This document shows positions 5,200 to 33,675 of a stretch of DNA of 64,000 bases, one piece after another. Every line of letters starts with the position of its first letter. Positions within the stretch are counted from its first letter, which is position 1. Location of the stretch: the NCBI GenBank assembly GCA_964409365.1, contig CAYPCX010000004.1, positions 21,015-85,014 on the forward strand, given 5' to 3'. This DNA is from an uncultured Planctomycetia bacterium (GTDB lineage: Bacteria; Omnitrophota; Gorgyraeia; Tantalellales; Tantalellaceae). Under the pieces are notes generated by a model. It saw only the letters and a program-made list of their open reading frames with translations. It made no database searches and was not told the DNA's origin. Position numbers and translations under genes: made by a program.

Positions 5200-5261
5200 G
5201 TCTTGCCGTTTTGACCGACGCTTATTTTATGGTATACTACTTCCTTGTAGGGGAGGTAATA

Positions 5262-8964: not shown

Positions 8965-10727
8965 AAATGCGTTTAAAGATCACCATATCTTTCTTTGCGG
9001 CCGGGTTTGTCCTTGCGGGGATAGGGTGGCTGGTCATAGTGCTGGGGCAGCCTGCCTTGGTGATGTTTGTGGCCATTCCGCTGGCGGCTCTTATTGTCGG
9101 GCTTTTTACGGGCGGGGTGGTCTTCAGGAACCTCGCGGGAGTGGCGAAAGGGGCCAGTATCGTGCGTTCTGGCAGTCTGGAGTACAAGATCGGCACGAAG
9201 GCCAACGACGAGGTCGGCCAGATCTCGAGGGATATTGACGGTATCGCGGAAGACCTGAAAAAAGCGCGTTTTTCGATCGACGTGCTTAACATGGAAAGGA
9301 CCAGGTTCGACAAGACCGAGAAAGAGCTCTCGGCAAGAGAGGAACACTTCAGGAATCTTTTTGAACATTCTAACGACGCGGTCTTTATACATGATCTTGA
9401 CGGAAAGCTCATAGACGTGAACAACAAGGCATGCGAGATGCTGGGTTACGATAAAGAAACGCTCCTGGGGATACCCTTCATGGATCTGCAGACAGAGGAA
9501 GAGCTTACCAGCTCCAAAGAGGCGCGCAGGATAGGCGATGAAAAGTGCGCGGTGCGTTTCGAATCCAAACTCAGGAAGGTCGACGGGGTGCCTATTAACG
9601 TCGAGATCAGTTCCAGCGTGGTGGACCTTAAGAAGGGGATAATGCAGGCGATAGTCCGCGATATAACCGAACGAAAAAAGCTGGAAGAGGCGCTGAAGGA
9701 GTCCGAGGAAAAATTCCGCACGTTCATGGAAACGGCCAGCGATCTGATGTACATAACAAGCAAATACGGCGAGCTGAAATACGTGAACCAGACCATGGCG
9801 AGCGCGCTCGGCTATACGGTTCAAGAGATGCAGGGAGGCATGCACATCACCGATATCATGGAGGACAAGACAAAAGAGGCCTTTAAGGGGCAGCACAGGC
9901 AGCTGGTCACGAACGGGGAAGTAATGTATGAGCCTGTCTGGGAGACCAAGAACCGGAGGAAGATCTACGGGGAAGTCAAAGAAAGCTCCATTTATGATAT
10001 GCAAGGCAGGTTTGCCGGGAGCAGGGGGGTCTTTCGTGATATAACCGAACGCAAGAAGATCGAAGAAGCCCAGCGGCTGGCGCAGCTGGGGAAACTGGCC
10101 GCTGACGTGGCGCATGAGGTGAACAACCCGGTGACAGTTATCTCGGCAAGGGCCCAGCTTTACCTGCGGGATGAAAAGGTTGACGAAAAGATCAAGAAGA
10201 ACCTTGAAATAATAGTCCAGCAGTGCGAGCAGGCCCAGAGCATCGTGCACAGGCTGCTCAAATTTTCCAAGCCCAGCAGAGGCGAGATAAAGGAGATAGA
10301 TATAAACGATACGATCAAAAGCGTGATAAACCTGGTAGAACCGCACTTCCGCGGTTCCGCGGTACGCCTGGCCACGGAACTCATGCCGTCACCTTCCCGC
10401 GTAAAGGCGGATGAAAAACATATGCAGGAAGTTTTCATGAACCTTCTCAGGAACGCCGCCGAAGCTATGCCGGACGGAGGCACGGTCACGGTGAAGACAT
10501 CGCTGGACGGTGATAATGTCCGCATAGATTTTATTGATACCGGCAGCGGGATCGCGGAAGAGGACCTGAAAAGGATATTCGACCCGTTCTTCACTACAAA
10601 AGAGAACGGGACCGGCCTGGGCCTTTCTGTTTGTTACGGCATACTCAAGAGCCACGGCGGCGACCTGAAGTATAAGTCCAGGCCGGGCGAAGGCACTACC
10701 GCCACTGTTCTTCTCCCCGCCGGGTAG
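8961..10727 (+). CDS. Membrane PAS/PAS sensor histidine kinase (HAMP, 2x PAS, HisKA, HATPase)
   Basis: N-terminal 2 TM; PAS signatures (NDAVFIHDLDGKLIDVNNKACEMLGY); H-box AHEVNNPVT; G-box GTGLGLSV; ATGA overlap with upstream gene. Confidence 0.85.
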   Translation: MKMRLKITISFFAAGFVLAGIGWLVIVLGQPALVMFVAIPLAALIVGLFTGGVVFRNLAGVAKGASIVRSGSLEYKIGTKANDEVGQISRDIDGIAEDLKKARFSIDVLNMERTRFDKTEKELSAREEHFRNLFEHSNDAVFIHDLDGKLIDVNNKACEMLGYDKETLLGIPFMDLQTEEELTSSKEARRIGDEKCAVRFESKLRKVDGVPINVEISSSVVDLKKGIMQAIVRDITERKKLEEALKESEEKFRTFMETASDLMYITSKYGELKYVNQTMASALGYTVQEMQGGMHITDIMEDKTKEAFKGQHRQLVTNGEVMYEPVWETKNRRKIYGEVKESSIYDMQGRFAGSRGVFRDITERKKIEEAQRLAQLGKLAADVAHEVNNPVTVISARAQLYLRDEKVDEKIKKNLEIIVQQCEQAQSIVHRLLKFSKPSRGEIKEIDINDTIKSVINLVEPHFRGSAVRLATELMPSPSRVKADEKHMQEVFMNLLRNAAEAMPDGGTVTVKTSLDGDNVRIDFIDTGSGIAEEDLKRIFDPFFTTKENGTGLGLSVCYGILKSHGGDLKYKSRPGEGTTATVLLPAG

Positions 10728-21602: not shown

Positions 21603-22105
21603 TGAACATACGCCTTTTCGATGAAAAGTTCCGGGAGAATAAAACCCGGTATGTCGCCCAGGCCGTGTTGGGAAGCATGGCGGTAGGCGCGGCGCTTTTC
21701 TGGTTCGATATTGTCCGTAACCCCGTTGTGATAGCTTCTTTCGGCGCGAGCGGTTTTATCGCGTTCACCGAACCGCGGCAGAAATTCTCCGGCCCGCGGT
21801 ATCTCATAGGAGGGTACATAATAGGCATGGTCGTGGGGGCATCGGCCCATTACCTGACGGTCTTTCCCGTTCACCATTACATGACGCTCAAACTGATCCA
21901 TATTGCCGCCGGTGTCCTGGCGGTGGGATTGGCGATGTTCCTGATGTCGATAACGAACACGGAACATGCCCCAGCTTCCAGCATCGCCCTGGGGCTTGTG
22001 ATAAACGACTGGGATCATATCATCATAGTGAAGATCCTGGTGGGCATAATCATTATTTCCATGTCGCAGAGAGCGCTCAGGCGCTGGATGATCGATCTTG
22101 TCTAA
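21602..22105 (+). CDS. HPP-family-like membrane protein
   Basis: 4 TM; EHAPASSIALG resembles HPP motif; weak. Confidence 0.4.
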
Positions 22106-23046
22106 AGGAATTTTCTTGCCCGCCTGGGGTCTTTCAGGCCTTCGGTAGCGCCTCTGCCGGTGCAGGAGAGGGAGGATAAGGCAGAAGCGTATCGCAGATT
22201 TTCCTTCATTTCTTCCCAGAAAACGTCTTTTCCCGCGGAACAGTACCTGTGAATAAGGCCGGCGGTGAAACTGTCCCCGGCCCCGATCGTGTCCACGACA
22301 CGTACTCTGAAAGCGCTCTGGCGGAGTTTCTTTTTTCCGTCCCAGTAGAAAGATCCCTTTTCGCCCAATGTGACGATAAGTCCGCCTTTAAGATATTGTT
22401 CTATTCTTTTGATGGCGCCGTCCAGGCTTTTAGCCCCGGTAACACAGACCGCGTCTGTCTCACTGAGTTTTAAAAGGTCCACGAAAGGCAGGATCTTTTT
22501 TATCCTGCTCCTGGCGTTTCTCTTATCGGGTATTTTGGGAGCGCGCCAGTTAGGGTCATAAGTGACGAATACGTCTTCTTCTTTGGCGAGTTTCAGGAGG
22601 TCCCGGATAAGAGGGAAGAAGCGGTCGCTGTAGGAGAAAAAGGATCCCGTGTGCAGCACCGCCGTATCCCTGAAAAGGGCCTTGAGTTTTGTTTTGCCCG
22701 GTTTTTTATAAGGAGCGTCATATTCATAGAACTGGTATGTGGAGTTGCCTTTTTTGTCTACATGGGCGAAAGCAAGAGGGGCGTGTACTCTTTTATCCCT
22801 TATTATATGGCTTGTTTCTACACCTTGTTTGCTGAGTATTTCCACAAGGGCTGAGCTCATGGAGCCCACACCCAAACGTGATATCAGGACCGAAGGCAGC
22901 CCGAGGTGGGCAAGGATGATGGCGGTGTTGGTGGCCGATCCCCCTGCGTGGGCTTCAAGAACGAGATCGCCGGTCTTTTCATTCTTCTTAACTATAAGGT
23001 CAAAAAGCGATTCCCCGCAGCATATTATATGTTTCTTCTTTTTCAT
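22102..23046 (-). CDS. PfkB-family carbohydrate kinase (ribokinase/fructokinase-like)
   Basis: N-terminal GG motif region; DTIGAGDSF ATP-binding signature. Confidence 0.8.
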   Translation of the reverse strand: MKKKKHIICCGESLFDLIVKKNEKTGDLVLEAHAGGSATNTAIILAHLGLPSVLISRLGVGSMSSALVEILSKQGVETSHIIRDKRVHAPLAFAHVDKKGNSTYQFYEYDAPYKKPGKTKLKALFRDTAVLHTGSFFSYSDRFFPLIRDLLKLAKEEDVFVTYDPNWRAPKIPDKRNARSRIKKILPFVDLLKLSETDAVCVTGAKSLDGAIKRIEQYLKGGLIVTLGEKGSFYWDGKKKLRQSAFRVRVVDTIGAGDSFTAGLIHRYCSAGKDVFWEEMKENLRYASALSSLSCTGRGATEGLKDPRRARKFL

Positions 23047-23249
23047 GTCTGAACAATATTACCACGTCACCCCTGGCCTGACAAGTCCTATCCCGGATGG
23101 GAACCATTCTAAAACACCACCCGGATGAGGTCAGGCTGAAGAGGGGGACAAGGCAAGGGCTATTAGCTAATAAACCATTGTTAATAAATCACTTGTGTCA
23201 AAATCACAATAATTATTAAAGAATTAAGGCCATAAAAGCTGGATTTTTA

Positions 23250-23279
23250 TTGACATAACTAACTATTTTATGTTATAAT
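23250..23279 (+). promoter_or_regulatory. sigma70-like promoter TTGACA-18-TATAAT in AT-rich region upstream of giant ORF
   Basis: ttgacataactaactattttatgttataat read in sequence. Confidence 0.5.
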
Positions 23280-23344
23280 GCCGCTACTTAAATTTATTAA
23301 ATTAACAACTATGTCCAATATGACTGAAGTTTAGCGGCTAATAT

Positions 23345-26300
23345 ATGAATAATTACTTTAACATACATAGATTGTGGTTCAAAACAGTTGCGACAGGCGT
23401 AGTATGCCTGTTCCTTCTGAATAATTTCTCCTTCGCGCTGGAACCGACCACGGGTCAAAGATCCTGTCATACCCTTTCTCCGCAGTCACGATTCCCATTC
23501 GTGATCAAAGATAGAGTAAATGAAACGGAACTCACGCAGAGGCTCCAGAATGACGCGGGGCTGATATACGTGAGCCTGCTGATAGGAAAGGTCCTGGCTG
23601 CCAACGGTAGCGTGATCAGCGACAGAGGCTTAAGAACGCTGATCGAAAGACACATTCTGCATATAGAACCTGTAAGTTTTGATTGGGAAAACCTCAGGAA
23701 AGAAGGGAAGACCTTTTGTCTTCCTTATACCGAAAAGGGCGGCAACCGGACAAGGATCCTTCGTTATTATTTACCGGAGGATAAACCTGAAGAGGCAATA
23801 GGGAAACGGTCCATACCTCTCGGAACGGGAAATGCCAGGGTTATTTTAGAGGATACCCGGGTAGACGTATCGGAATCTGTGTTTATTTTTAACGTTGGCA
23901 CCGATGATATAAAGGGAGGAACAGGAAGAGAACTGTACGAGACAAATAGAATAGCTCAGGGAATTTATGATAGAGCGGCAGAGGCCCTGGGGTGCGATGT
24001 TTCCATGTTGTTTTTAGAGGAAAAGAACAGGGGTATAACCGAACGGTGGGCTGTCGGCAACATTTTGTATGGGGTAGCCCTGTATGCGGCATTTTCCGGC
24101 AGAATGGAGACGAATGATGCTCCGATCGCGCTGGCCGGTAACAGTATGGGTGAGATAGGAGCCCTTATCGTGAGCGGCGCCGTGTCTTTGGAGGACGGTG
24201 TCAGGCTTGCCCGGTTTTGTGGACATTTTTTTGAGACGGTCGTAGATAAGGTCGATTATGGCGTCGTCATACTGGAAGGCATTGAGAGTGATGCTATCAA
24301 GGGTTTTCTTGATCCCGGAAAGGTCGAGCTGTTCCAGGATGTTTCTCCCAGCAGCATTTCCCTGGCTGTAAGCAGGGATGTCGACCATGAAGAACTGGTC
24401 AACCGGTTAAAAGAGGCCGGAGCGAGAAGAGCGCAATATTTCGAAAAGCCTTTGGTCAAAGGGTCTCATGTAAGCTGGTACAGTCGTTATGGGCAGGGCC
24501 TTGTAGATCAGATCAGGGAAATGAAGATAAGCGATCCGGAGATCCCCGTTATCTCGCCCGCGACAGGGGAGATCCTCACGACCGCTGACCAGGTAAGGGA
24601 AGATATCCAGACGCAGTTTTTTAGGCCGATCGCATGGCGCGGTGTGGTAGATAAGGCCGTGGAAAGCGGCGCAAGATCGATGCTGGCCTTCGGGCCGGGA
24701 TGGCGGATCATAAAAAGAACAGAATCGATGGGTTCCGGTATTGAGATTATCCCGGCGACGGATCTTGCGGAGCTTGAATCCTTGAAACATAAGGTCAGGG
24801 GGTTCGGTTCCGAGAATTTAAGGCCGGATATCGGTACTGTGGTGAAAGGGCAGGATGGGCATACTTATGAAATCAAAGAGATAATAACGACCGGGGGAAC
24901 AGCCATTATTTTCGGGGCCAGGGATATGGAAACGAGCAAGAACGTCGCGATAAAATTCCTGGATTTTTCTATTGTGCCGGAACCGGAAGAATTTATAAAG
25001 CTGTTCAAACGGGAAGTGGATGTTTTGAAAAAAGGGTTCACGTTCGCGCCTGGTTTTTATGACTGGAATATCGTCGATGATCCCAAAGGTTATGGTTGGA
25101 TAGCTATGGAAAAGCTCGAAGGCGTTGAATTGTGGAAATGGGCAGCGGATAAATATCAGGATCAGACGATAGGTGTGCAGGAGAAGGTGAGAGATATAGT
25201 AGAAATAGTGCAGAAAGTCCTCAACCATATGAGTGCCTTATATGAAAACGGCATTCAGTATCGCGAAGTGAACCGGAAAAATATTATCGTTACTCCGGAG
25301 AGCGAACCGAAGCTAGTAGATTTCGTCGGCGCGTGCGTTCCCGGGCATGACCCAATACCATTGAATAAACTTCCGTGCACCCCGAACTATTTACCGCCTG
25401 ATAGACACCGTGAAATAAAACTCAAAGGTCCGGGGGTCCTTGACGATGTGACAACTCCGCAGTACGACGTTTTTCAGATGGGCGTGTTGCTGTTCCACCT
25501 GGCTCGCATGACAGGCCCACCTGATGACGGTTCTTATTGGGATGTCTCATTCACATACGAGACATATACCCGGGAAAAGATCGAAGATATGTTGCCGCCT
25601 GCTTGGAAAAGGTTTGCCGGTGTTATTTTTAAAGCCACCGCTCGGGAGCTTGAAGACCGCTACGAGAGCGCGGAAGAAATGAAACGCGCCATTGAGGAGC
25701 AGGAAGATGCACCAGGTTCCGAAGGATTTGGTGATGGGACTCATGGCCCGGATTTCGGAAAATCAAACCGAAAAAAGTTCTGTTTAGTCGCAATGGGCGC
25801 GGTATCTCCCTGGGTGGTGCTGATTCTATTAGCTGGCATGGTCATATGTGATATGGTCTACGGCGTAATAAACCACGAAAGGTTCTACCAGGTGATCCTC
25901 AACAAACACCCGAAGCTTACCCTCGCGCTTAAAAACCTCTTCTACCGCCAGTACTTGCCTGATCTTATCTCAAAACCCCTCCAGAGGTGGGCTGTTTCAG
26001 CGCTGGGCCGTTTGATGGACAAGATAAAAGAATTCACCGATAAACTCCCGGGAATAAGATTTAGGGATCCAGTTGTTGTCATGGAGGCCGAACTTGCGGG
26101 GACGGGAGACAAAGTAATCAGTGACATCGGCTTCCAGGTGCCGATCGTATTCGAGATGTCCAAGTCCGGCAGAAAGGGCAGAGGAAGGGGATCCAATAAA
26201 AGAAGGAAACAGATGTCCAAACGGCCCCCGGCCGCAGAGGAGCCCAAACCATACGATGACCTGATCTCCTGCGCGGGATATGCTTTAAATAACCTGGTGA

Positions 26301-29300
26301 TCGTCAGGGAACAACCTGAGATGCTACAAGCGGCAAAAGATTTTTACGCTTATTTATCTGAAGCAGGGAAAGACATCTTGGACCAGTTGAATATAGATGA
26401 GAACAAACTACAGGATATAAGATCGATTTTGGAAGGAAGGGGTTTGTCTCCGGACATGGTCCGGTGTTTGAGGCAGGATGCGGAGATCATAACCGGCAGA
26501 ACGAAGGGTAAAGGTACGGTCAAAGCCTCCCCGAAAAGATTTTCGGACGATTATGAAATAGTCGAGGTCGCCGATGTAAAAACACTTGTTCCCGTTATTA
26601 TGTATGTTCAGGAAATGAAAGCGCGTGAAGTCACGGATGCGGAACTCTCATTATACGCGGTGACTGATGATGATTTGAGAAAAGGAGTTCGGATGCCGGA
26701 GAAATTACCGGCCGCAAAAGAGATGCTTTACAGGAAAGCGTTGAGAAACCTGAAAGATGTAAATTGGTACAAAAGGGGCTGGCAGGAAGTTCAGGGTTTA
26801 TCCCCGGCGAATAAACGTTTTCTGAAAGAAAAAGCGGAAGAGATATGCGGGGATAAACTTGAAAAGTGCTGGGGTTTTGTAGAAGGCATTTCAAGCGAGC
26901 AGGATTATGCCGAGAAACTAATGAGAACTGAGATTGCCACCGTGAACAGTATGCGTGATTTCACGGAGTTTATAATATTGTTGGCGTGTATTTACGGAGG
27001 CGAGCAGACGCATGATGAGATGCGCGTGGCCTTGGAAAATATAGAAAAAGAGCATGAAAATGCCGCCCTTCTCGGTGATGCGCCTGTTCTCGACAGACTT
27101 GACGAAGATGTATCGGTAAATGTAGGGACTTTCGCAAAGATCGCTTTTTCCTTTCTTGAACATGAAAAGGGCTTGGAAAGAGACAGTAAAGAGTACAGGG
27201 CGATACTGGATGCGGTACGGCGTATAAATTCCTCCGCTAAAGTGCAATGCCGGCCGGAATCGAGCGAGAGATGGATAAGGGACTTTTTGGCATGGATACA
27301 CGCGGGATTCAGGTATTATCTGATGCCGAAAGGCGGCGAGATATACGACGATCGGCATGGGCCGGGTGTGTTGCGTGAAGGCGGGGCCATTGTTCCGGGA
27401 AGGGCGGTAACACCCTTTACACTGGTATCCGGTGCCGTAAAAACTTCGGACGCCGAGCTTTTCTCCGCTGAGGCGGGGAAACTGGGAATATTTACTTATG
27501 TCCTTCCTCCCGGGTTTGTGACATGCCGGATATCTTCTACCGGAAGGAATATAATCCTTAAAACGGGGCACATTGATGTAGTCATGGGTGTTGTTCCGCC
27601 GGAGTTTACAAGCGATGGCAGAGCCAAACTCCTGATGGATCCGAGTTATCACAACCTGGTGAAAGACAACCCCGAATTTCTGCGTCTTTTGGAAGAACAG
27701 GGTTCTAATATGGATGTGGTCCTAATACATCCGGAAGAAACTTACCTTAACCTGGCCAATTTCAGCTCGCTCCTGGATGAAAATGGGCAGGTCAAACTGC
27801 TTTTTAATCACGACAAAGGCCTTACTTTGCCATATTTGAATTTGAAAACGGGTGTTCTTTTCCAGACGGATATGGAAATAACGGGAATGGCGGTTCTTAG
27901 GGGCCTGGTAAGGTGTATGACAAATATGCTTCCCGGGAGCTACGTAAAGGGAGGCGCCTCTACCAGCATCGTGATCCGTGATAGCGGTATGCCACCCGGT
28001 GTGGCGACAGGCCTTCATGCGTTAAGTAAGGACCCGGAACTGAAAAGGGTGTTGCAGGAGCTTTGGATAAATAGATTGACGATAACTGGGACTAAATTTC
28101 GTCCTATGTCCCTGGTCCATTATGATTCGTCAACCCGGAGGATTCTCGTCCAGTTGGGGAATGATCTTGTAAATGATCCCAGCGCCGCCTGCGATTATGT
28201 TATTAATTACTTAGAAGCAACCCGGCAGCGTCTGTGCCAGGATATGGGTATATCTGTCCAGGGGTTTGGTGATACCCGACAGATGGGTGGATCGGCCCCG
28301 GCTCCGGCCGGTATGTTCCCGTGGATGTGGCGCGTCTATGATCCGATAAAAAGAGGTCTTGAGAAGAGGGACTGGCCGGCGCGCCGGATCGCCGGTCTGA
28401 TAGGCGGCCTGGAAGAGCTGGGGATCGCGGGCCTGGTCATGAACGGGGCAGCTTTTGCGTTAAGTTATTTTTGCGGGATGCCTTTTATAACAGCTCTTCT
28501 GGTGACTTCAGCGGTCGCGGTGCCGTTTTTTCCGGCAGGACATATTAGAGGACGGTATTATATTCAAGGAGGGGGATTTGCCCCCGCTTTGCCTTCTAAT
28601 TTCTGGAAGGATATGGGCGTCCTTACAGTTCTTGGACTTACGACAAGATCCCTGCAGCTATTGCCTGTCGCAATGGTATGCGTGTTTAACCTTAATCCTG
28701 CCTTTACGCTGGTCGGCATCCCGCTTGCCGTTATCGCGCATGCTTATTATAACCATTCCGTAGCGCCCGAACGCAACCGCCCTCTCGGCATGCCATGGAA
28801 AGGTAAACCCCACAAGTGGACGCCGGAACGTATATCTGAAGAGCTTCGCATGATGTATTTTGACGGAGTGGATTCAAGAGGTGTGAAGTGCACACGTGAA
28901 GACCTTCGGATCGAAAAAATAAGAGACCATTATCAGGGTCTTGCTGTTGCGGTCCCGAGGACTTGGAAGGAAATGCTGAAGGAACAGGGAGTATCAGAGA
29001 ACAGCCGCCTTTATATTTACATGTCCGGGGAAGGCAGAAATCCCAGGGAAGGTATTAATAAGGCAGGATGGGAGTATTTCTGGGCGACGATCGGAGTGAA
29101 TTACGAAAGAGATATTGAAAAGAAACCGGGTGCTGCAGAAGGGGCTTATATACCGAACGCGACCGATAGCGGCATAGAACACCGTGATTTGAAAAAGTTC
29201 GTTCCGGAAGAAGATGAGCTGTTCGGTATTGTCAGGGAAATGTTGGGCGGGGAAGATCTCACTGAACACGAGATAGCTGATATCATCCTCAACGCGCCCG

Positions 29301-32038
29301 ATGATGTTATTTCAGATGATCAGAGATTCATTTTAAGGGAATATTGCGGACTTAACAAGAGCGGCGTAGCAACGATGGTAAAAGATATCGCTGAGGAAAT
29401 GGGCATCTCCACGACCGCCGTGATCGATTCGAGGAAGAGAGCTTGTGAGAAGATCTATAACTGGCTTAAAGCCCAGCAGAGAACGGAAGGGGCGGAAAGG
29501 CAGGATCTGATCTTGCGGGACGAACCGGATCTTTATTACAGATTACAGGAAATGGGCATTAATACTGTCATCGAGCTTTCGGATCTTACGGAGAACGAGT
29601 TCGCGGAACAGCCGGGAATAAATTCCTGGCACGTTTCTGTTGCTAAGCAAAAGCTTGTTGAAGCTGGCCTGGGAGGATTCCGTTCGCCGTCGTTAGGGAG
29701 GAGCGCCCCTATAGAAAACTTGAGTCTGGCTGTGGAAAACCCGGAAAGGGTTCATGCGCTTTTGAGGAAAAAAGGCGTAAACACCGTTGCGGTGCTTTTG
29801 AAGATCGGGGTAGGGGGGCTTGCGGATAGGCTGGGAAAAGAGGCGTCACGACATATCATTGCCATAAGAAGGGCGGTAGCGCCGCATGGTTGGGAATTAA
29901 GGTTCCCCGCTGCAGTGAGTAACAACGATCCCATAGAATGTCTGCCTTTTCCCGCTTGGCACGAGTACGATACTTGTCAAAGGCTCAGGGAGGTCAATAT
30001 CAAGACTATCGGCCAGCTTCGGGACAAGACCCGAATAGAGCTAAAAAGGGTCGAGGGTATAGGGCAGGCGCGGCTGGAGATCATCACGAGAACTCTTGCT
30101 TATTATGACAAAGAATTAAGGGTTGACAGCGCGTTGAAGGAAGAGGATTCGATAAGAAAGCTTTGGATCTCTGCTTTTAAATCAGAAAATGTTTATAGCG
30201 CCCTTGAAGGGGCTGGTATTATTACTATCGGCCAGCTTTTAGATAAGACAAGAAAGGATCTCTTGCGGATCCCCAAGATCGGCGAACGTGCCGTTGCCGC
30301 TATTGAGGAAAAACTGGCTGTCTACGGCTGGAGATTACGTCAGGAGAGCACGATCGATGGTGTTCCTGCCGATATTCCGGCCGGAAGTATCGAAAACGTG
30401 CTCAGCTATTTTTGTGATCAAGACATAACCGATCCTGGGAAAGCCCTTACGCTGGAGCAGGCAGCAGATCGTTTGGGGCTTTCACCCTGGACAATAGAGC
30501 CGGACATAAGGGCGTTGAGCCTGCACCTGGATCTTTTGGAGGTCGTTCCTCCGGGTGGGACGGGTAAAAAGAAGAGGTATTACGTCCCGGAAAGCGTGAA
30601 GAAGAAACTCGATAGGATACTCCCGGTCCTATCCCAATTCCGCGGTGAGAATCTCCGCCCGAAAGTCGCACTTCTCGATGAAGTCTACGAAAAAGAAATA
30701 TTCCCGATTCTTGCCCCGGAAAAAAGTATTAAGCTTGAGATGATAAGACCGTCACCGGAATTGGAAAACAGAATTGAAAAATTCAGAGGAGTCGTGAAAA
30801 AACTTACCGATGACATACAAGGATCTTATGACGAAGAGCGGGGAACTTATTCATCAAAAGAATACGAAGCCGTGATAGCTGCCTTCGTGAATAGCCATAA
30901 GCCGTCCAGCATAGGCTACTACCATCCTTCTCCTTCATGGGCTATTCCTATTTTTCTCGAACATTTAGGGATAAACGAAAGTGATATAATGCTGGAAGCG
31001 GGAAGCGGAAAAGCTATTGTATCTTTTGAGGCCGCTTGTTTGTTCGGCGCTCGCGCGACGGCGGTGGAATATAGCGAAGCCTTCCACGTGTACGCCGGAC
31101 TGATACAAAAGGGGTTAATAAAAGAGGGTGTGCTGGAAGACAAACATGTGACTTTGTTCAATAAAGATTTTCTGGAGATGGATTTCTCTGAATACTCGCT
31201 GATCTATTACCAGTCACAAGGGACGCGCAAGAAGGAAGAACTGCTTAAGAAGATGTTGCAGATCAAACCGGGTGGCAGGATATTGATCTACGCGGGATAT
31301 GAACCCGAGATAGAGGACGAACTCAATGCGAATCCGGAGTTCGAAGCGAAGAAACTACAGATCGAAGGGCACCCCGGTGCTTTAGAGATGAGGGTCTATA
31401 CCAGGGTCGCCCGAGCGGATGAGGATGAGAAGCCGGTGGTCGATATTGCCAGCGAGGACAAGATCGCTCAGGATTTCATAGATGCGGTTATTCTGACGAT
31501 CGACGCGCTGGGAAGAAGATCCGGCAGGCAGAACAAGAAGATGATGATCGGTATTGACACAAGCTGGATACCGGAAGAGCAGCGGCATTCATCCGCGATG
31601 GTGCAGACCCTACTGGCGGCGATAAAAGATGCGCTTAGGGAGATAGGGCGGGAGGACATCGTTTTACTGGATGATAGTGACCCGGAGGGGTTAGCAGAGC
31701 AGCTCCGGACGGAAAGCGGGAAGACGGGAGTACCGCTTTCAAATATCGCGATAGTAAGTGCCGAAAAGACGTTCGAAGGAACGGACATTTTCGAGGAATT
31801 CAAGGGCGAGAGCAGGGAACAGGGCGCGTTTTTTGCGAAGGTGCCGCTGCCGGAAAAAGGACTTTCAAAGGATCTTGACATCAATATCGTCAAGATGTTG
31901 ACGATATTGATGAAGCATATATCCGACCCGGACAGCCCCCGCGAATTCTATTTGCCGATACCAGACGCGAAAGAGGTAGGGATAGACAAGCTCGGGGATG
32001 TTCATAAAGCCCGCGCCGAGGCGTTGATCAGGGCGTAA
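23345..32038 (+). CDS. Giant multidomain membrane protein (2,897 aa): N-terminal signal/anchor, FabD-like acyltransferase, degenerate protein-kinase-like domain, several TM blocks, sigma-70 region-4-like HTH (x2), four RNAP alpha-CTD-like HhH repeats, class I SAM methyltransferase
   Basis: single uninterrupted ORF; domain motifs identified by eye (see findings). Confidence 0.8.
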   Translation: MNNYFNIHRLWFKTVATGVVCLFLLNNFSFALEPTTGQRSCHTLSPQSRFPFVIKDRVNETELTQRLQNDAGLIYVSLLIGKVLAANGSVISDRGLRTLIERHILHIEPVSFDWENLRKEGKTFCLPYTEKGGNRTRILRYYLPEDKPEEAIGKRSIPLGTGNARVILEDTRVDVSESVFIFNVGTDDIKGGTGRELYETNRIAQGIYDRAAEALGCDVSMLFLEEKNRGITERWAVGNILYGVALYAAFSGRMETNDAPIALAGNSMGEIGALIVSGAVSLEDGVRLARFCGHFFETVVDKVDYGVVILEGIESDAIKGFLDPGKVELFQDVSPSSISLAVSRDVDHEELVNRLKEAGARRAQYFEKPLVKGSHVSWYSRYGQGLVDQIREMKISDPEIPVISPATGEILTTADQVREDIQTQFFRPIAWRGVVDKAVESGARSMLAFGPGWRIIKRTESMGSGIEIIPATDLAELESLKHKVRGFGSENLRPDIGTVVKGQDGHTYEIKEIITTGGTAIIFGARDMETSKNVAIKFLDFSIVPEPEEFIKLFKREVDVLKKGFTFAPGFYDWNIVDDPKGYGWIAMEKLEGVELWKWAADKYQDQTIGVQEKVRDIVEIVQKVLNHMSALYENGIQYREVNRKNIIVTPESEPKLVDFVGACVPGHDPIPLNKLPCTPNYLPPDRHREIKLKGPGVLDDVTTPQYDVFQMGVLLFHLARMTGPPDDGSYWDVSFTYETYTREKIEDMLPPAWKRFAGVIFKATARELEDRYESAEEMKRAIEEQEDAPGSEGFGDGTHGPDFGKSNRKKFCLVAMGAVSPWVVLILLAGMVICDMVYGVINHERFYQVILNKHPKLTLALKNLFYRQYLPDLISKPLQRWAVSALGRLMDKIKEFTDKLPGIRFRDPVVVMEAELAGTGDKVISDIGFQVPIVFEMSKSGRKGRGRGSNKRRKQMSKRPPAAEEPKPYDDLISCAGYALNNLVIVREQPEMLQAAKDFYAYLSEAGKDILDQLNIDENKLQDIRSILEGRGLSPDMVRCLRQDAEIITGRTKGKGTVKASPKRFSDDYEIVEVADVKTLVPVIMYVQEMKAREVTDAELSLYAVTDDDLRKGVRMPEKLPAAKEMLYRKALRNLKDVNWYKRGWQEVQGLSPANKRFLKEKAEEICGDKLEKCWGFVEGISSEQDYAEKLMRTEIATVNSMRDFTEFIILLACIYGGEQTHDEMRVALENIEKEHENAALLGDAPVLDRLDEDVSVNVGTFAKIAFSFLEHEKGLERDSKEYRAILDAVRRINSSAKVQCRPESSERWIRDFLAWIHAGFRYYLMPKGGEIYDDRHGPGVLREGGAIVPGRAVTPFTLVSGAVKTSDAELFSAEAGKLGIFTYVLPPGFVTCRISSTGRNIILKTGHIDVVMGVVPPEFTSDGRAKLLMDPSYHNLVKDNPEFLRLLEEQGSNMDVVLIHPEETYLNLANFSSLLDENGQVKLLFNHDKGLTLPYLNLKTGVLFQTDMEITGMAVLRGLVRCMTNMLPGSYVKGGASTSIVIRDSGMPPGVATGLHALSKDPELKRVLQELWINRLTITGTKFRPMSLVHYDSSTRRILVQLGNDLVNDPSAACDYVINYLEATRQRLCQDMGISVQGFGDTRQMGGSAPAPAGMFPWMWRVYDPIKRGLEKRDWPARRIAGLIGGLEELGIAGLVMNGAAFALSYFCGMPFITALLVTSAVAVPFFPAGHIRGRYYIQGGGFAPALPSNFWKDMGVLTVLGLTTRSLQLLPVAMVCVFNLNPAFTLVGIPLAVIAHAYYNHSVAPERNRPLGMPWKGKPHKWTPERISEELRMMYFDGVDSRGVKCTREDLRIEKIRDHYQGLAVAVPRTWKEMLKEQGVSENSRLYIYMSGEGRNPREGINKAGWEYFWATIGVNYERDIEKKPGAAEGAYIPNATDSGIEHRDLKKFVPEEDELFGIVREMLGGEDLTEHEIADIILNAPDDVISDDQRFILREYCGLNKSGVATMVKDIAEEMGISTTAVIDSRKRACEKIYNWLKAQQRTEGAERQDLILRDEPDLYYRLQEMGINTVIELSDLTENEFAEQPGINSWHVSVAKQKLVEAGLGGFRSPSLGRSAPIENLSLAVENPERVHALLRKKGVNTVAVLLKIGVGGLADRLGKEASRHIIAIRRAVAPHGWELRFPAAVSNNDPIECLPFPAWHEYDTCQRLREVNIKTIGQLRDKTRIELKRVEGIGQARLEIITRTLAYYDKELRVDSALKEEDSIRKLWISAFKSENVYSALEGAGIITIGQLLDKTRKDLLRIPKIGERAVAAIEEKLAVYGWRLRQESTIDGVPADIPAGSIENVLSYFCDQDITDPGKALTLEQAADRLGLSPWTIEPDIRALSLHLDLLEVVPPGGTGKKKRYYVPESVKKKLDRILPVLSQFRGENLRPKVALLDEVYEKEIFPILAPEKSIKLEMIRPSPELENRIEKFRGVVKKLTDDIQGSYDEERGTYSSKEYEAVIAAFVNSHKPSSIGYYHPSPSWAIPIFLEHLGINESDIMLEAGSGKAIVSFEAACLFGARATAVEYSEAFHVYAGLIQKGLIKEGVLEDKHVTLFNKDFLEMDFSEYSLIYYQSQGTRKKEELLKKMLQIKPGGRILIYAGYEPEIEDELNANPEFEAKKLQIEGHPGALEMRVYTRVARADEDEKPVVDIASEDKIAQDFIDAVILTIDALGRRSGRQNKKMMIGIDTSWIPEEQRHSSAMVQTLLAAIKDALREIGREDIVLLDDSDPEGLAEQLRTESGKTGVPLSNIAIVSAEKTFEGTDIFEEFKGESREQGAFFAKVPLPEKGLSKDLDINIVKMLTILMKHISDPDSPREFYLPIPDAKEVGIDKLGDVHKARAEALIRA

Positions 32039-32040
32039 TA

Positions 32041-32077
32041 CAGGTCTCAGGTCACAGGTTTCAGGTAGCAGGTCACA
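32041..32077. repeat. (CAGGTNN)x5 heptad array just after giant ORF stop
   Basis: caggtct caggtca caggttt caggtag caggtca. Confidence 0.8.
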
Positions 32078-32142
32078 CAGCATAAAACCCTTGCGCATGA
32101 GTTCTATATTTGCTATAATTTGACACTCTGAACGAGATTTGA

Positions 32143-32217
32143 CGCGGGGTGGAGCAGAGGTAGCTCGTGAGGCTCATAACCTCAAGGTCGGCGGTTCGAT
32201 TCCGCCCCCCGCAACCA
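32143..32217 (+). tRNA. tRNA-Met (CAT), initiator-like (C1:A72 mismatch, close to E. coli tRNA-fMet)
   Basis: CGCGGGGTGGAGCAG...GCTCATAACC...GGTTCGATTCC...CCCCCGCAACCA. Confidence 0.85.
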
Positions 32218-32221
32218 ATAT

Positions 32222-32253
32222 AAAAACCCGGCTGATTTTTAGCCGGGTTTTTC
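32222..32253 (+). terminator. Rho-independent terminator (cccggct-N7-agccggg + T5), same stem as terminator at 11055
   Basis: read in sequence. Confidence 0.7.
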
Positions 32254-32262
32254 TTACCCCGG

Positions 32263-32300
32263 TACCTGAAACCCGACACCCGACACCTGATACCTAACCC
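32263..32300. repeat. (ACCYGAN)x5 heptad array upstream of purB promoter
   Basis: acctgaa acccgac acccgac acctgat acctaac. Confidence 0.8.
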
Positions 32301-32301
32301 A

Positions 32302-32330
32302 TTGACACCGCTAATTATATATGCTATAAG
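32302..32330 (+). promoter_or_regulatory. sigma70-like promoter TTGACA-17-TATAAG for purB
   Basis: read in sequence; RBS gggaggg before ATG 32383. Confidence 0.5.
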
Positions 32331-32382
32331 AAATATTCCGATTTAGTTTTTTATTCCCCTTTATTTACGGGAGGGAGCGAAA

Positions 32383-33675
32383 ATGATAGAAAGATATACG
32401 CGCCCCGGAATGGGCAGGATCTGGGCGGACGAGAACAGGTTCCGCAAGATGCTGGACATAGAGATACTGGCCTGCGAAGCGTTCGCGAAACAGGGGCTTA
32501 TACCCAAAGACGCCCTGAAGAACATCAAGGAAAAAGCCGATTTCGATGTCGATCGCATCAAGGAGATAGAAGCCAGGACCCACCACGACGTCGTTGCCTT
32601 CATAAAGAGCATTTCGGAATATGTCGGTGAAGACGCCAAGTATATACATTTCGGCCTCACCTCGAGCGATGTGTTGGACACGGCCCTTTCGGTGCAGATG
32701 GTCGAAGCGATGGACCTTCTTCTGGAAGGGGCAAAGGCCCTCCGGGAAGCGCTGAAAGACAAAGCGCACAGGTACAAGAAGACCCCCATGATGGGCCGTT
32801 CGCACGGCGTGCATGCCGAGCCCATATCTTTCGGCCTGAAGATGGCGCTTTTTTGTAAAGAGATGGACCGTAATATCCACAGGTTGGAGGACGCCAGGGA
32901 AACGATAGCGGCGGGGAAGATATCGGGTTCGGTGGGGACTTTCGCTAACGTAGACCCCGTTGTGGAAGAATATGTATGCAAGCGGCTCGGGCTTAAACCG
33001 GCGGGTGTATCCAGCCAGGTCCTTCAGAGGGACAGGCATGCACAGTACCTGAACGCCATCGCCATCGTGGGAGCGACCCTGGAAAAAATAGCCCTTGAAG
33101 TGCGCGGTCTCCAGAAGACCGAGATCGGCGAAGTGCAGGAGTTTTTCGCCTCGGGCCAGACGGGTTCTTCGAGCATGCCGCACAAGAAGAATCCCATCAT
33201 CTGCGAGCGCATAACGGGACTTGCGAGGGTCTTGAGAGGTAACGCCATGGCGGCCATAGAGAACGTCGCCCTGTGGCACGAGCGGGACATATCGCATTCT
33301 TCGGTCGAACGCATAATAATACCGGATTCCGCTATCCTTCTTGATTATATGCTGGATAAAGCTACGAAACTGGTGGAAAAGCTCGTCGTGAACGAGGACA
33401 GGATGCTGGAGAACATGGGCGCGACAAAAGGCCTTGTGTATTCACAGCACGTGCTTCTCGAGCTTATAAAAAAAGGGGCGACACGCGTCGACGCTTATGA
33501 CATCGTCCAGGAGTTGTCGCTGAAGAGCCACGAACACGGTAGAGAGTTCAAGGACCTTCTTCTTGAGAGCGAGAAAATAAAAAAGTACCTTTCGGAAAAA
33601 GAGATCGAGGATTGCTTCAGCCTTGATTATCATCTCCGGCATATTGACAGCATCTTCAAGAAGATCGGTCTATAG
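32383..33675 (+). CDS. purB: Adenylosuccinate lyase
   Basis: MIERYTRPGMGRIW N-terminus; GSSSMPHKKNP fumarate-lyase signature. Confidence 0.95.
   Translation: MIERYTRPGMGRIWADENRFRKMLDIEILACEAFAKQGLIPKDALKNIKEKADFDVDRIKEIEARTHHDVVAFIKSISEYVGEDAKYIHFGLTSSDVLDTALSVQMVEAMDLLLEGAKALREALKDKAHRYKKTPMMGRSHGVHAEPISFGLKMALFCKEMDRNIHRLEDARETIAAGKISGSVGTFANVDPVVEEYVCKRLGLKPAGVSSQVLQRDRHAQYLNAIAIVGATLEKIALEVRGLQKTEIGEVQEFFASGQTGSSSMPHKKNPIICERITGLARVLRGNAMAAIENVALWHERDISHSSVERIIIPDSAILLDYMLDKATKLVEKLVVNEDRMLENMGATKGLVYSQHVLLELIKKGATRVDAYDIVQELSLKSHEHGREFKDLLLESEKIKKYLSEKEIEDCFSLDYHLRHIDSIFKKIGL

Follow-up and report, generated by a model that had tools for sequence, protein, structure and literature searches.

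A putative exported FabD-fold acyl hydrolase/transferase beside a pseudokinase-like domain in a membrane-anchored mosaic protein of Omnitrophota type

In the stretch of DNA analyzed here (64,000 nucleotides, referred to as the window), a single ORF encodes a 2,897-aa protein in whose N-terminal part a domain resembling the acyltransferase FabD adjoins a domain resembling a protein kinase, and this raises the question of what such a pair does and on which side of the membrane it does it. An earlier note on this DNA had drawn attention to the two domains between positions 23867 and 25625. All motifs quoted there are present in the translation of 23345..32038 and both domains do lie in that span, but the kinase-like one ends only at approximately residue 790 (~25714), beyond 25625. 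The best reading of our data is that this N-terminal head is neither a fatty-acid enzyme nor a lipid kinase. The features on which this reading draws are collected in Table 1.

Table 1. Features of the 2,897-aa ORF and its flanks (positions in the window; residues of the translated protein).
Feature	Positions	Strand	Residues	Basis or remark
Predicted sigma-70-type promoter, TTGACA-18 nt-TATAAT with TG extension	23250..23279	+		consensus match only, 12/12
Long mosaic membrane protein, single ORF	23345..32038	+	2,897 aa	
Signal-peptide-like or signal-anchor N-terminus	23345..23440	+	1-32	R/K n-region, hydrophobic core, FSFA/LEP
N-terminal region	23441..23866	+	33-174	no Pfam match at E<=10; AlphaFold2 pLDDT <50
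FabD-like acyltransferase/hydrolase-fold domain	23867..24814	+	~175-490	
Hanks-type protein-kinase-like domain	24821..25714	+	~493-790	
Strong TM segment	25778..25870	+	812-842	Kyte-Doolittle 2.55
Central orphan region	25871..28414	+	843-1690	no Pfam match
Membrane cluster interpreted as a pair of helical hairpins	28418..28750	+	1692-1732 and 1757-1802	hydropathy
Weak sigma-70 region-4-like/HTH segment	29297..29464	+	~1985-2040	TIGR02937
Four tandem RNA-polymerase alpha-CTD-like helix-hairpin-helix units	29531..30334	+		PF03118
Weak class-I SAM-methyltransferase-like segment, motif LEAGSGKA	30920..31291	+	~2526-2649	PDB phmmer
C-terminal module	31529..31909	+	~2729-2855	common to C-terminus of relative P0026
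Terminator-like palindromic hairpin	32222..32252	.		12-bp stem, 6 G-C pairs

The predicted promoter lies ~65 nt 5' of the ATG and is the sole perfect site within 22900-32500. The terminator-like hairpin, which is 3' of the stop codon and flanked on both sides by A/T runs, was listed on the minus strand, and its symmetry suggests that it could also serve the plus strand. The GC content of the gene is 3-5% lower than that of its flanks. Its neighbours in the window include Rnf, PurN, enolase, DivIC, PfkB, PurB/M/D, SHMT, BamA and LpxC, and no ACP, KS, fab or PKS genes were found among the annotated ORFs of these 64 kb.

Profile HMMs, phmmer searches of the PDB and Foldseek searches with AlphaFold2 models, built for each domain separately, bore out the assignment of both domains. 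For the acyltransferase part, TIGR00128 (fabD) matched over aa 191-452 with an E-value of 3.4e-29, the PDB search returned FabD 3hjv (E 9.4e-19), and the top Foldseek match was FabD 6u0j (E 3e-19). The model of this part is of moderate confidence only (over aa ~174-451, blocks of 10 residues have a pLDDT of ~65-93, with two short stretches <50). It shows the same two-subdomain fold as FabD (E. coli 1mla/2g2z), the Foldseek match having a target-normalised TM-score of ~0.8, and the resemblance in fold is clear. The scores nevertheless stay below those set for the families: the TIGR00128 equivalog score is 102.2 bits against a curated cutoff of 260.9, and PF00698 (Acyl_transf_1) scores 25.9 bits against a gathering score of 32.7, which the relatives P0023 (35.3) and P0026 (33.5) pass.

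FabD is also the nearest family by sequence, and the motifs shared with it were located at aa 180-188 (FIFNVGTDD), 265-270 (GNSMGE), 371-377 (VKGSHVS), 421-431 (IQTQFFRPIAW) and 448-453 (AFGPGW). Ser267 (24143-24145) of GNSMGE and His375 (24467-24469) of GSHV align with the nucleophile Ser92 and the catalytic His201 of E. coli FabD, so that the Ser-His dyad is kept, as is Gln424, the equivalent of Gln250. Conversely, the domain lacks Gln11, Gln63, His91 and Arg117 of FabD. The replacement of the oxyanion loop GQGSQ (Gln11) by VGTDD, which had been noted earlier, is indeed seen, but the domain is not merely an altered FabD; it belongs to a separate subfamily in which all malonyl-specific residues have all but disappeared. 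The earlier note was silent on the further exchanges, i.e., Cys292 (24218-24220) at the position of Arg117, Asn266 in place of His91 (the His of GHSxG) and VGN in place of TQP(Gln63), and there are two more in the kinase-like domain, the catalytic-loop Lys to Asn643 and APE to PPD. Also unlike FabD, the domain follows a signal-peptide-like leader inside a 2,897-aa membrane protein and has no fab or ACP context in the window.

The subfamily emerged when 1.84 billion representatives were searched exhaustively with HMMER: the matches P0023-P0037, P0066 and P0141 scored 72-217 bits and ordinary ~300-aa FabDs roughly 70-90 bits; a word-index search with the subfamily profile returned only such ordinary FabDs and not one subfamily member. 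At 26-40% identity, the alignment of 14 members has invariant Gly265, Gly269, His375 and Trp431, and the nucleophile is Ser in 12 of them and Cys in 2. GQGSQ, TQP and Arg117 are missing from all 14, and GHS from 13, the exception being P0141, which keeps GHSMGE; elsewhere the nucleophile motif reads GSS, GAS, GVS, GNS, GDS or GTS, with GNSMG in the query. That the Ser/Cys nucleophile, the elbow glycines and the His are kept in every aligned member argues for selection on acyl-enzyme chemistry. By its sequence, the acyltransferase-like domain is a member of a separate branch of the FabD fold that has not been annotated so far, and it also occurs by itself, P0025 consisting of a leader and the FabD-like domain alone (395 aa).

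Arg117 of FabD is joined to the malonyl carboxylate by a salt bridge (PMC11775670). In acyl hydrolases of the PksD type this position holds Gln or another residue and GHSL has become G(A/S/V)SL, and these enzymes cleave non-carboxylated short acyl thioesters and do not transfer malonyl (PMC11775670). The acyl hydrolases of trans-AT PKS systems (PksD, PDB 8avz) resemble the query in the FabD-fold Ser-His arrangement, in lacking a basic residue where FabD has Arg117 and in the replacement of the GHSxG His, and they appear, by analogy, to be the best mechanistic model of the FabD-like domain. The differences are that the oxyanion Gln12 and the Phe of xFHS (Phe200), both conserved in acyl hydrolases, are absent from the query subfamily (the query has no Gln in its beta1-alpha1 loop, and Ser374 precedes His375); that the nucleophile motif of the query has Asn266 where theirs has Ser, Ala or Val; and that the query has no PKS cluster nearby and a predicted extracytoplasmic site without ACP-bound substrates. 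Since FabD (E 1.7e-37) is closer to the subfamily in sequence than PksD is (E 3.2e-19), the analogy is functional and not phylogenetic.

The second domain was recognized by Pkinase PF00069 (49.5 bits, gathering score 31.7), and its nearest structures were PknB 3f69 by phmmer (E 4.5e-14) and PknB 1o6y by Foldseek (E 2.7e-17), the latter with a bilobal AlphaFold2 model of pLDDT 81 and pTM 0.83. The glycine-loop motif TTGGTAIIFGA was located at aa 515-525, VAIKFL at aa 534-539, FKREVDVL around Glu557, YREVNRKN at aa 639-646 and DFVGA at aa 659-663. Retained are beta3 Lys537, alphaC Glu557, Arg640, the catalytic-loop Asn646, Asp659 of DFG, alphaF Asp708 and Arg772. Tyr639-Arg-Glu641 stands in place of HRD, with Glu641 (25265-25267) at the Asp position, and DFG has become DFV (Val661). 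The triad of an active kinase is thus incomplete: Lys537 and Asp659 are present and the HRD Asp is absent. A review of the bacterial forms (PMC12599244) defines a pseudokinase by one or more of beta3-Lys, HRD-Asp and DFG-Asp being missing; the kinase-like domain is a pseudokinase by this sequence definition, and to that extent the earlier description of its catalytic loop as degenerate holds. It falls outside the pseudokinase families named in the passages of the review considered here (ActPs, GLW, DYD and DLHK, among others), where Omnitrophota are likewise not mentioned. PknB-type (Hanks) kinases share with the query the bilobal fold and the single TM helix after the domain, and differ from it in that the query has the YRE(V)N(RK)N loop, DFV, a predicted outside location and the fusion to an acyltransferase fold.

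A canonical HRD/DFG in relatives, proposed earlier as a sign of sequencing error, was looked for, and the outcome was mixed. The nearest relative, P0028 (40% identity), does keep HRD (HRDLKPSS) but has DFN and lacks the loop Asn; P0036 has HRDLSPRH with DFG, P0031 HLD with DFM, and P0033 HLN with DFS and a Gln at the beta3 position. Because the relatives lose their motifs in differing ways, the erosion is real, lineage-wide and no error. The identical 2,897-aa protein is moreover recorded in NCBI, JGI, Logan and ENA assemblies (7 contigs), and since the same sequence comes from four sources, a sequencing or assembly error was ruled out as the origin of YRE/DFV. Two further kinds of kinase were considered and set aside: matches to the anti-phage systems MAD6 and PglW (NCBIfam E 1e-5 and 6e-3) and to the lanthionine synthetases LanL/LanKC were all far under their cutoffs and probably reflect generic similarity of the kinase fold. 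As the nucleotide- and metal-binding residues are all kept and a Glu could serve as general base, residual kinase activity is in principle possible.

No second protein carrying both domains was found among the 150 best matches of the 1.84e9 representatives, which agrees with the earlier remark that the pairing resembles nothing characterized, and a word-index homology search with the domain pair returned only generic kinases and trans-ATs. For the whole 2,897-aa protein, neither homology searches nor scans with peptide patterns found an orthologue; all that the patterns retrieved from GTDB genomes, and likewise from JGI metagenome contigs, was one unrelated kinase. The central region matched only itself among 5.8e9 proteins (word-index homology search), and Pfam, run on six sub-segments at E<=10, gave nothing for aa 1-182 or aa 832-1352. 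Four relatives of the two domains carry names, and all four are proteins of Candidatus Omnitrophota MAGs; the source organism of the window, too, presumably belongs to this group. The architectures of the relatives are mosaics of Metallophos, ARMT1, HATPase_c, NAGPA, GT1, HD, methyltransferase, GNAT, CheR and Pterin_bind domains. The host protein is an Omnitrophota-type mosaic long protein, a class that is already known and in which domain shuffling is normal, so that the unique pairing probably says little. Like the long and giant mosaic proteins of Omnitrophota (West-Roberts et al., 2023, bioRxiv 10.1101/2023.11.21.568195; Seymour et al., 2023, PMC10066038; 2026 preprint 10.64898/2026.06.07.730766), it has a predicted signal peptide and TM architecture, many unrelated and highly divergent enzyme and regulatory domains, and large unannotated stretches; 94% of Omnitrophota long proteins have a signal peptide or TM helices according to published descriptions. 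At 2,897 aa it is well under the 'giant' classes of at least 10,000-30,000 aa (Archaeovorin or dockerin type) and, unlike these, gave no matches to SecA_DEAD, dockerin or peptidase C39. Text searches of the 2023 (10.1101/2023.11.21.568195) and 2026 (10.64898/2026.06.07.730766) preprints turned up no acyltransferase domain.

On which side of the membrane the two domains lie was assessed by Kyte-Doolittle hydropathy and charge counts (positive-inside rule), not by a dedicated signal-peptide or topology predictor. The hydropathy peak of the leader covers aa 14-32, and cleavage would fall between FSFA and LEP; leaders of the same type occur in P0024, P0026, P0027 and P0141, and nearly all full-length relatives have a signal-peptide-like start. 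The TM segment at aa 812-842 is flanked by a net charge of -1 before and +3 after it. In the membrane cluster at aa 1692-1802 the three flanks are all net positive, and four helices, making five predicted TM helices in total, were counted by eye. The earlier note had allowed either compartment for the pair; hydropathy and charge make the outer side of the cytoplasmic membrane the likelier one. The order of kinase, linker and TM helix resembles that of PknB, whose kinase is cytoplasmic, and counts against an outside location. Published studies caution against relying on topology predictions for Omnitrophota long proteins.

Toward the C-terminus, TIGR02937 matched aa 1968-2039 with an E-value of 4.8e-4, under its cutoff, and HTH_10 and HTH_Tnp_ISL3 matched weakly as well. 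The alpha-CTD-like units start at aa 2063, 2136, 2210 and 2283; PF03118 scored 42.8 bits (gathering score 23.8) on two stretches, the other two units being read from the sequence. The methyltransferase-like segment matched 5bxy, an 'RNA methyltransferase', at E 0.0042 in the PDB phmmer search and had no Pfam match, and the C-terminal module matched P0026 at E 8e-9 (local phmmer).

We consider it probable that the protein begins, as the N-terminal head of a membrane-anchored mosaic protein, with an exported Ser-His acyl hydrolase/transferase acting on a non-malonyl substrate, beside a nucleotide-binding pseudokinase. Against this stands a PknB-like arrangement in which the N-terminal segment is no working signal, the acyltransferase-like and kinase-like domains are both cytoplasmic, the kinase is active, and the TM helix leads to an extracytoplasmic central region; a Ser/Thr kinase using Glu641 as base would then regulate, or be regulated by, the adjacent acyltransferase. 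The order of kinase, ~20-aa linker and TM helix known from PknB-family receptor kinases, the basic cluster KSNRKK directly before the helix, the retention of Lys537, Glu557, Asn646 and Asp659, and the published warning on topology predictions all speak for it. We nevertheless regard it as unlikely: the domain has other residues in place of the HRD Asp, the loop Lys and the DFG Gly and relatives erode differently, the leader type (positive n-region, FSFA/L) is common to relatives, the charges around the TM helix run the other way, and an odd number of helices would be needed in aa 1692-1802 to return the HTH and HhH segments to the inside, where the charges fit four. That the domains are non-catalytic relics, whether mere scaffolds or passengers in decay, in a mosaic protein that is shuffled and evolves fast, would account for an orphan protein with a pairing unique among the 150 best matches, variously eroded motifs in the kinase clade and a lowered GC content. 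We give this little credence, as the nucleophile, both elbow glycines and the catalytic His persist in 14/14 acyltransferase-like members at 26-40% identity and the 8.7 kb ORF is intact behind a perfect consensus promoter.

The two remaining explanations both appear very improbable. A bona fide FabD or AT would serve lipid or polyketide synthesis by loading malonyl or another extender unit on a carrier protein, and the kinase-like domain would be appended to it in a regulatory role. The top matches in sequence and fold are indeed FabD and Ser267, His375 and Gln424 are kept, but the family scores miss their cutoffs, Arg117 (the malonyl salt bridge), Gln11, Gln63 and His91 are replaced in the query and almost the whole subfamily, no ACP, KS or fab genes were found among the annotated ORFs of the window, and the predicted location is exported. 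Similarly, the kinase-like domain might be an atypical small-molecule or lipid kinase, as the earlier note had suggested, phosphorylating a product or substrate of the adjacent acyltransferase. That the two domains adjoin, and that relatives have weak secondary Pfam matches to the Kdo/WaaP, APH and ABC1 families, would suit this proposal, but it found no specific support: the best matches are all PknB/Hanks-type protein kinases, the protein-kinase-specific APE-like loop, Asp708 and Arg772 are present, the catalytic base is altered, and the pair does not recur in another protein among the 150 best matches.

In the preferred reading of an exported acyl hydrolase/transferase beside a pseudokinase, the polypeptide would run from a signal peptide through both domains outside the membrane and the TM helix at aa 812-842 to a cytoplasmic remainder with two membrane hairpins and modules resembling DNA/RNAP-binding and methyltransferase domains. 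The acyl-enzyme machinery is kept (Ser267 in a GxS(C)xG elbow, His375 as general base, and Gln424), an acyl-Ser intermediate would still form on a non-carboxylated acyl ester or thioester, and the domain would function in acyl hydrolysis or transacylation, much as the acyl hydrolases of trans-AT PKS systems depart from their AT relatives. Domain 2 would be a pseudokinase, at best a very weak kinase, that serves as a binding or scaffold module; on account of its Lys537, Glu557, Asn646 and Asp659 it is still expected to bind nucleotide and metal. Acyl-CoA, ACP and ATP are lacking outside the cytoplasmic membrane, and such a location would fit the residue losses of both domains. More speculatively, and with a rather poor chance of being right, the subfamily may represent a new class of exported Ser/Cys-His acyl hydrolases or transacylases that Omnitrophota direct at acyl esters, whether lipids of the envelope, of prey or host, or others. 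In the present protein, such an enzyme and its ATP-binding pseudokinase partner would together be the sensing part, outside the cytoplasm, of a trans-membrane regulator made of one polypeptide, whose cytoplasmic sigma-70-region-4-like HTH, four alpha-CTD-like units and methyltransferase-like domain would act on transcription.

If the preferred reading is true, a branch of the FabD fold would work outside the cell without malonyl-CoA or ACP. Its signature would be the retention of GxS/CxG and (K)xxH with the loss of Arg117 and GQGSQ, together with that of GHS in every member except one, and this would warn annotators off the label 'ACP S-malonyltransferase' for these domains. The kinase-like clade, with its variable motif erosion, would add to the few described bacterial pseudokinase lineages. 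The long proteins of Omnitrophota are a recognized knowledge gap, most of their domains being too divergent to annotate, and a ~300-aa domain that also occurs in the stand-alone, predicted secreted P0025 offers an experimentally tractable entry to them.

Both families proposed for the interval 23867-25625 were recovered by profile searches and by matches to solved structures, in agreement with the two-domain observation of the earlier note, and every sequence string quoted there was found in the ORF translation. For the first half, i.e., the FabD-like (AT-like) domain, the TIGR00128 fabD model matched aa 191-452 (E 3.4e-29), Pfam Acyl_transf_1 reached 25.9 bits, under its gathering score of 32.7, and FabD chains were matched among solved structures (3hjv, 9.4e-19; E. 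coli 1mla, 2e-17). For the second half, Pfam Pkinase matched aa 508-724 with 49.5 bits, over its gathering score of 31.7, a PknB-type NCBIfam model matched with E 5e-19, and M. tuberculosis PknB was matched among solved structures (4.5e-14). The sole correction to the interval is that the kinase-like domain runs on to about aa 790 (window ~25714). The two domains were modelled separately from small but clean alignments (A3 and A4). The AT-like model had a pLDDT of roughly 65-93 per 10-residue block across aa ~174-451, where it dipped under 50 in two short stretches (aa 34-171, also below 50, are unmodelled), and its best Foldseek matches were FabD structures (6u0j, E 3e-19, target-normalised TM-score 0.81), with PksD far lower in the list. 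The kinase-like model (pLDDT 81, pTM 0.83) best matched PknB structures (1o6y, E 2.7e-17).

Catalytic residues of the AT-like domain were assigned from alignments to FabD and trans-AT sequences. Ser267 (GNSMGE), His375 (GSHV) and Gln424, the equivalent of Gln250, are kept; VGTDD stands at the GQGSQ loop (Gln11), VGN at TQP (Gln63), Asn266 at the His of GHSxG, and Cys292 at FabD Arg117, the malonyl-carboxylate-binding residue. In FabD, Arg117 forms a salt bridge to the malonyl carboxylate; trans-AT PKS acyl hydrolases have Gln or another residue at this position, and G(A/S/V)SL in place of GHSL (PMC11775670). Residues of the kinase-like domain were assigned from alignments to PknB and eight other kinases. 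It keeps the second G-loop glycine, Lys537 (VAIK), Glu557 (alphaC), Arg640, Asn646, Asp659 (DFG), Asp708 (alphaF) and Arg772; HRD is changed to Tyr639-Arg-Glu641, the catalytic-loop Lys to Asn643, DFG to DFV and APE to PPD. PMC12599244 defines a pseudokinase as a kinase fold that has lost any of the beta3 Lys, the HRD Asp or the DFG Asp, so the domain, having lost the HRD Asp, is predicted to be a pseudokinase by the usual definition, and the earlier suggestion to this effect was reasonable. Its nearest kinase relatives erode differently (HRDLKPSS/DFN, HRDLSPRH/DFG, HLD/DFM, HLN/DFS), and these differing patterns show an apparent relaxation of constraint on phosphotransfer residues across the clade. 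Canonical HRD/DFG orthologues had been named as a possible sign of error; no orthologues were found, and the motifs of the paralogous relatives are not canonical either. Sequencing error behind the altered kinase motifs is ruled out, because the exact 2,897-aa protein is on record in NCBI, JGI, Logan and ENA assemblies (7 contigs) and the YRE codons are unambiguous (TAT CGC GAA).

Relatives were sought by an exhaustive HMMER scan of 1.84e9 cluster representatives, in which the best matches besides P0017, the query's own cluster representative, formed an AT-like and a kinase-like group. Among the matches listed, 13 proteins of 395 to 6,226 aa carry AT-like domains (26-40% identity to the query, 72-217 bits); for FabDs of the ordinary ~300-aa kind the score is about 70-90 bits. 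Kinase-like relatives include P0028 (3,700 aa; 40% identity) and P0036 (36%), with weaker multi-copy matches in proteins of 3,900-7,200 aa. When each domain was re-searched locally, no other protein among the matches listed had both; the fusion thus appears unique at this depth, at which proteins with both weak domains summing to less than ~69 bits may escape. Word-index searches of 5.8e9 proteins returned generic kinases and trans-ATs alone (at most 28% identity), and for the central region (aa 832-1997) nothing beyond its own cluster; pattern scans of GTDB genomes and JGI metagenomes gave nothing related. The domain-pair query did not retrieve P0017 in the word index, the central-region query did, and the subfamily profile brought up ordinary FabDs alone, missing every one of its own members. 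The AT-like subfamily is effectively invisible to the word index, and was found by the HMMER scan alone.

An alignment of 14 AT-like members (A5), with four true FabDs as reference, has as invariant positions both nucleophile-elbow glycines, the catalytic His and one Trp. Twelve members have Ser as the nucleophile and two have Cys; GQGSQ, TQP and Arg117 are present in none of the 14, GHS is kept in P0141 alone, and some conserved positions are subfamily-specific, e.g., a Lys three residues ahead of the catalytic His and H-x-S-(F/Y)-Y. That the acyl-enzyme residues persist at 26-40% identity speaks for Ser/Cys-His chemistry having been kept in this subfamily, and the almost complete family-wide loss of malonyl-binding residues speaks against malonyl transfer. 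Because the subfamily profile is closer to FabD (E 1.7e-37) than to PksD (3.2e-19), the subfamily is best read as a branch derived from FabD that has two hallmark substitutions in common with the trans-AT PKS acyl hydrolases and does not belong to that group.

The 8.7-kb giant gene looks monocistronic (table). Its GC content (0.47-0.51 across window 22001-32000) is 3-5% below that of the flanking housekeeping genes (0.52-0.55). In one JGI assembly the ORF is broken into P0017 (aa 1-2026, then 11 aa out of frame) and P0018 (from aa ~2130); in the NCBI, Logan and ENA records the product is intact at 2,897 aa. This points to an assembly or strain indel at window ~29420-29735 (aa ~2026-2130). The window is an unremarkable piece of diderm chromosome, with an Rnf operon, purN, eno, divIC, pfkB, purB/M/D, glyA, surA, ftsH, dnaB, bamA and lpxC; a series of purine-biosynthesis genes is split by the giant gene, purN lying upstream and purB/purM/purD downstream. 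The annotated ORFs of the 64-kb window include no fab, ACP or PKS gene. Upstream lies a three-ORF run encoding a 768-aa protein with a weak HEAT match only, whose exact sequence is absent from a 15-billion-protein collection, an HD_5 domain protein and a PAS-PAS-HisKA-HATPase_c histidine kinase.

Features of the giant gene, its product and its upstream neighbours
Feature	Window	Residues (aa)	Strand	Basis	Remarks
Three-ORF run	5211-10727				upstream of giant gene
Perfect extended -10 sigma-70 promoter	23250-23279			consensus match, TTGACA-18-TG-TATAAT	~65 nt upstream of ATG
Single ORF, 2,897 aa	23345..32038		+		contains interval 23867-25625
Leader	23345-23500	1-50
N-terminal signal-like segment		14-32		hydropathy
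Single strong TM segment		812-842		hydropathy
Membrane cluster		1692-1802		hydropathy	read as two helical hairpins
Weak sigma-70 region-4-like HTH		~1985-2040			N-terminal to alpha-CTD-like units
Four tandem RNAP-alpha-CTD-like helix-hairpin-helix units	29531-30334			PF03118, 42.8 bits
Another HTH-like stretch		~2368-2380			C-terminal to alpha-CTD-like units
Weak class-I methyltransferase-like segment				5bxy, E 0.004
C-terminal ~130 aa	31529-32035	~2729-2897		P0026 C-terminal domain, E 8e-9
Palindromic, symmetric terminator-like hairpin	32222-32252			A5-stem-loop-stem-T5	~185 nt past stop codon

The stretch ahead of the single TM helix has a net charge of -1 and the stretch behind it +3, and all three flanks counted in the hairpin cluster are net positive. 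Since these counts fit the positive-inside rule, we infer a signal peptide, the AT-like and kinase-like domains outside, the TM helix, and all else inside, for a kind of long protein in which topology calls are unreliable according to the literature. Four alpha-CTD-like units with HTH-like stretches on either side are unusual cargo for a membrane protein. Under the proposed topology these units and the HTH and methyltransferase-like segments would be cytoplasmic, and DNA/RNAP-binding modules belong in the cytoplasm. Almost all full-length relatives start with a signal-peptide-like leader, many of them without a further strong TM segment, and P0025 consists of the leader and an AT-like domain and nothing else. 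The host leader contains KTVATGVVCLFLLNNFSFA|LEP; near-identical leaders stand on Omnitrophota long proteins of differing architecture. Among the relatives compared (P0024, P0026, P0027 and P0141), that of P0024 contains MVVVCLFSINTVAWTA|P and that of P0141 LVLVCLFFLNDISWA|IP, with a TL(A/S)xQ(S/T) motif often next. The shared leader may serve in export or sorting and be specific to the lineage. Tails similar to that of the host end many of P0026, P0024, P0029, P0035 and P0037 (..LIRA, ..LQAA, ..RQAA, ..LVAA, ..KAAA, ..MKFA), which could mean that these proteins have a C-terminal module or sorting tail in common and vary in the interior that it frames.

Most likely, and with somewhat better than even confidence, the pair would be an exported FabD-fold acyl hydrolase or transacylase joined to a nucleotide-binding, phosphotransfer-impaired kinase fold. 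Ser267 would carry the acyl intermediate, with His375 as base, the substrate would be some non-carboxylated acyl ester or thioester, and the kinase fold next along the chain would bind nucleotide and act as a binding or scaffold module. Outside the cytoplasmic membrane there is no malonyl-CoA, no ACP and no ATP, and such a location would explain the losses in both domains. That the protein instead holds a cytoplasmic, active PknB-like kinase, with the PknB-like order of kinase fold, linker and TM helix on one side and the lost HRD Asp and the charge counts on the other, seems unlikely to us, and we give still less credit to non-catalytic relics, for which the eroded kinase motifs speak and against which the conserved acyl-enzyme residues stand. 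A true FabD, for which the profile match speaks, is very improbable; the FabD function implicit in the earlier note is not supported, the malonyl-binding residues being lost here and almost family-wide. Equally hard to credit is a small-molecule kinase, to which the altered catalytic loop had pointed; the lipid-kinase alternative found no support, and the nearest structures are those of PknB.

All four named relatives are Candidatus Omnitrophota MAG proteins (MCK5451074.1, NQT06012.1, MBL7069745.1 and MFH1790755.1), with mosaic architectures that include Metallophos, ARMT1-like phosphatase, HATPase_c, NAGPA, GT1, HD, several methyltransferases, GNAT, CheR, Pterin_bind and Glucosamine_iso. These agree with what has been published on the long and giant proteins of Omnitrophota, which carry many divergent enzyme domains per chain and numerous TM helices, have a signal peptide or TM helices in 94% of cases, and include a 'signal-transduction/regulatory' module of methyltransferase, HATPase, GNAT, HAD and HD; an acyltransferase domain did not come up when the text of the 2023 and 2026 preprints was searched (10.1101/2023.11.21.568195; 10.64898/2026.06.07.730766). 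The one-off fusion to an eroded Hanks-type kinase fold appears to be new, and the pairing alone carries little weight, because unique juxtapositions are expected in a shuffled protein class. Also new would be the FabD-derived subfamily itself, which lacks the malonyl-binding residues, is confined so far to long proteins of the Omnitrophota type, and in many cases stands behind a signal-peptide-like leader.
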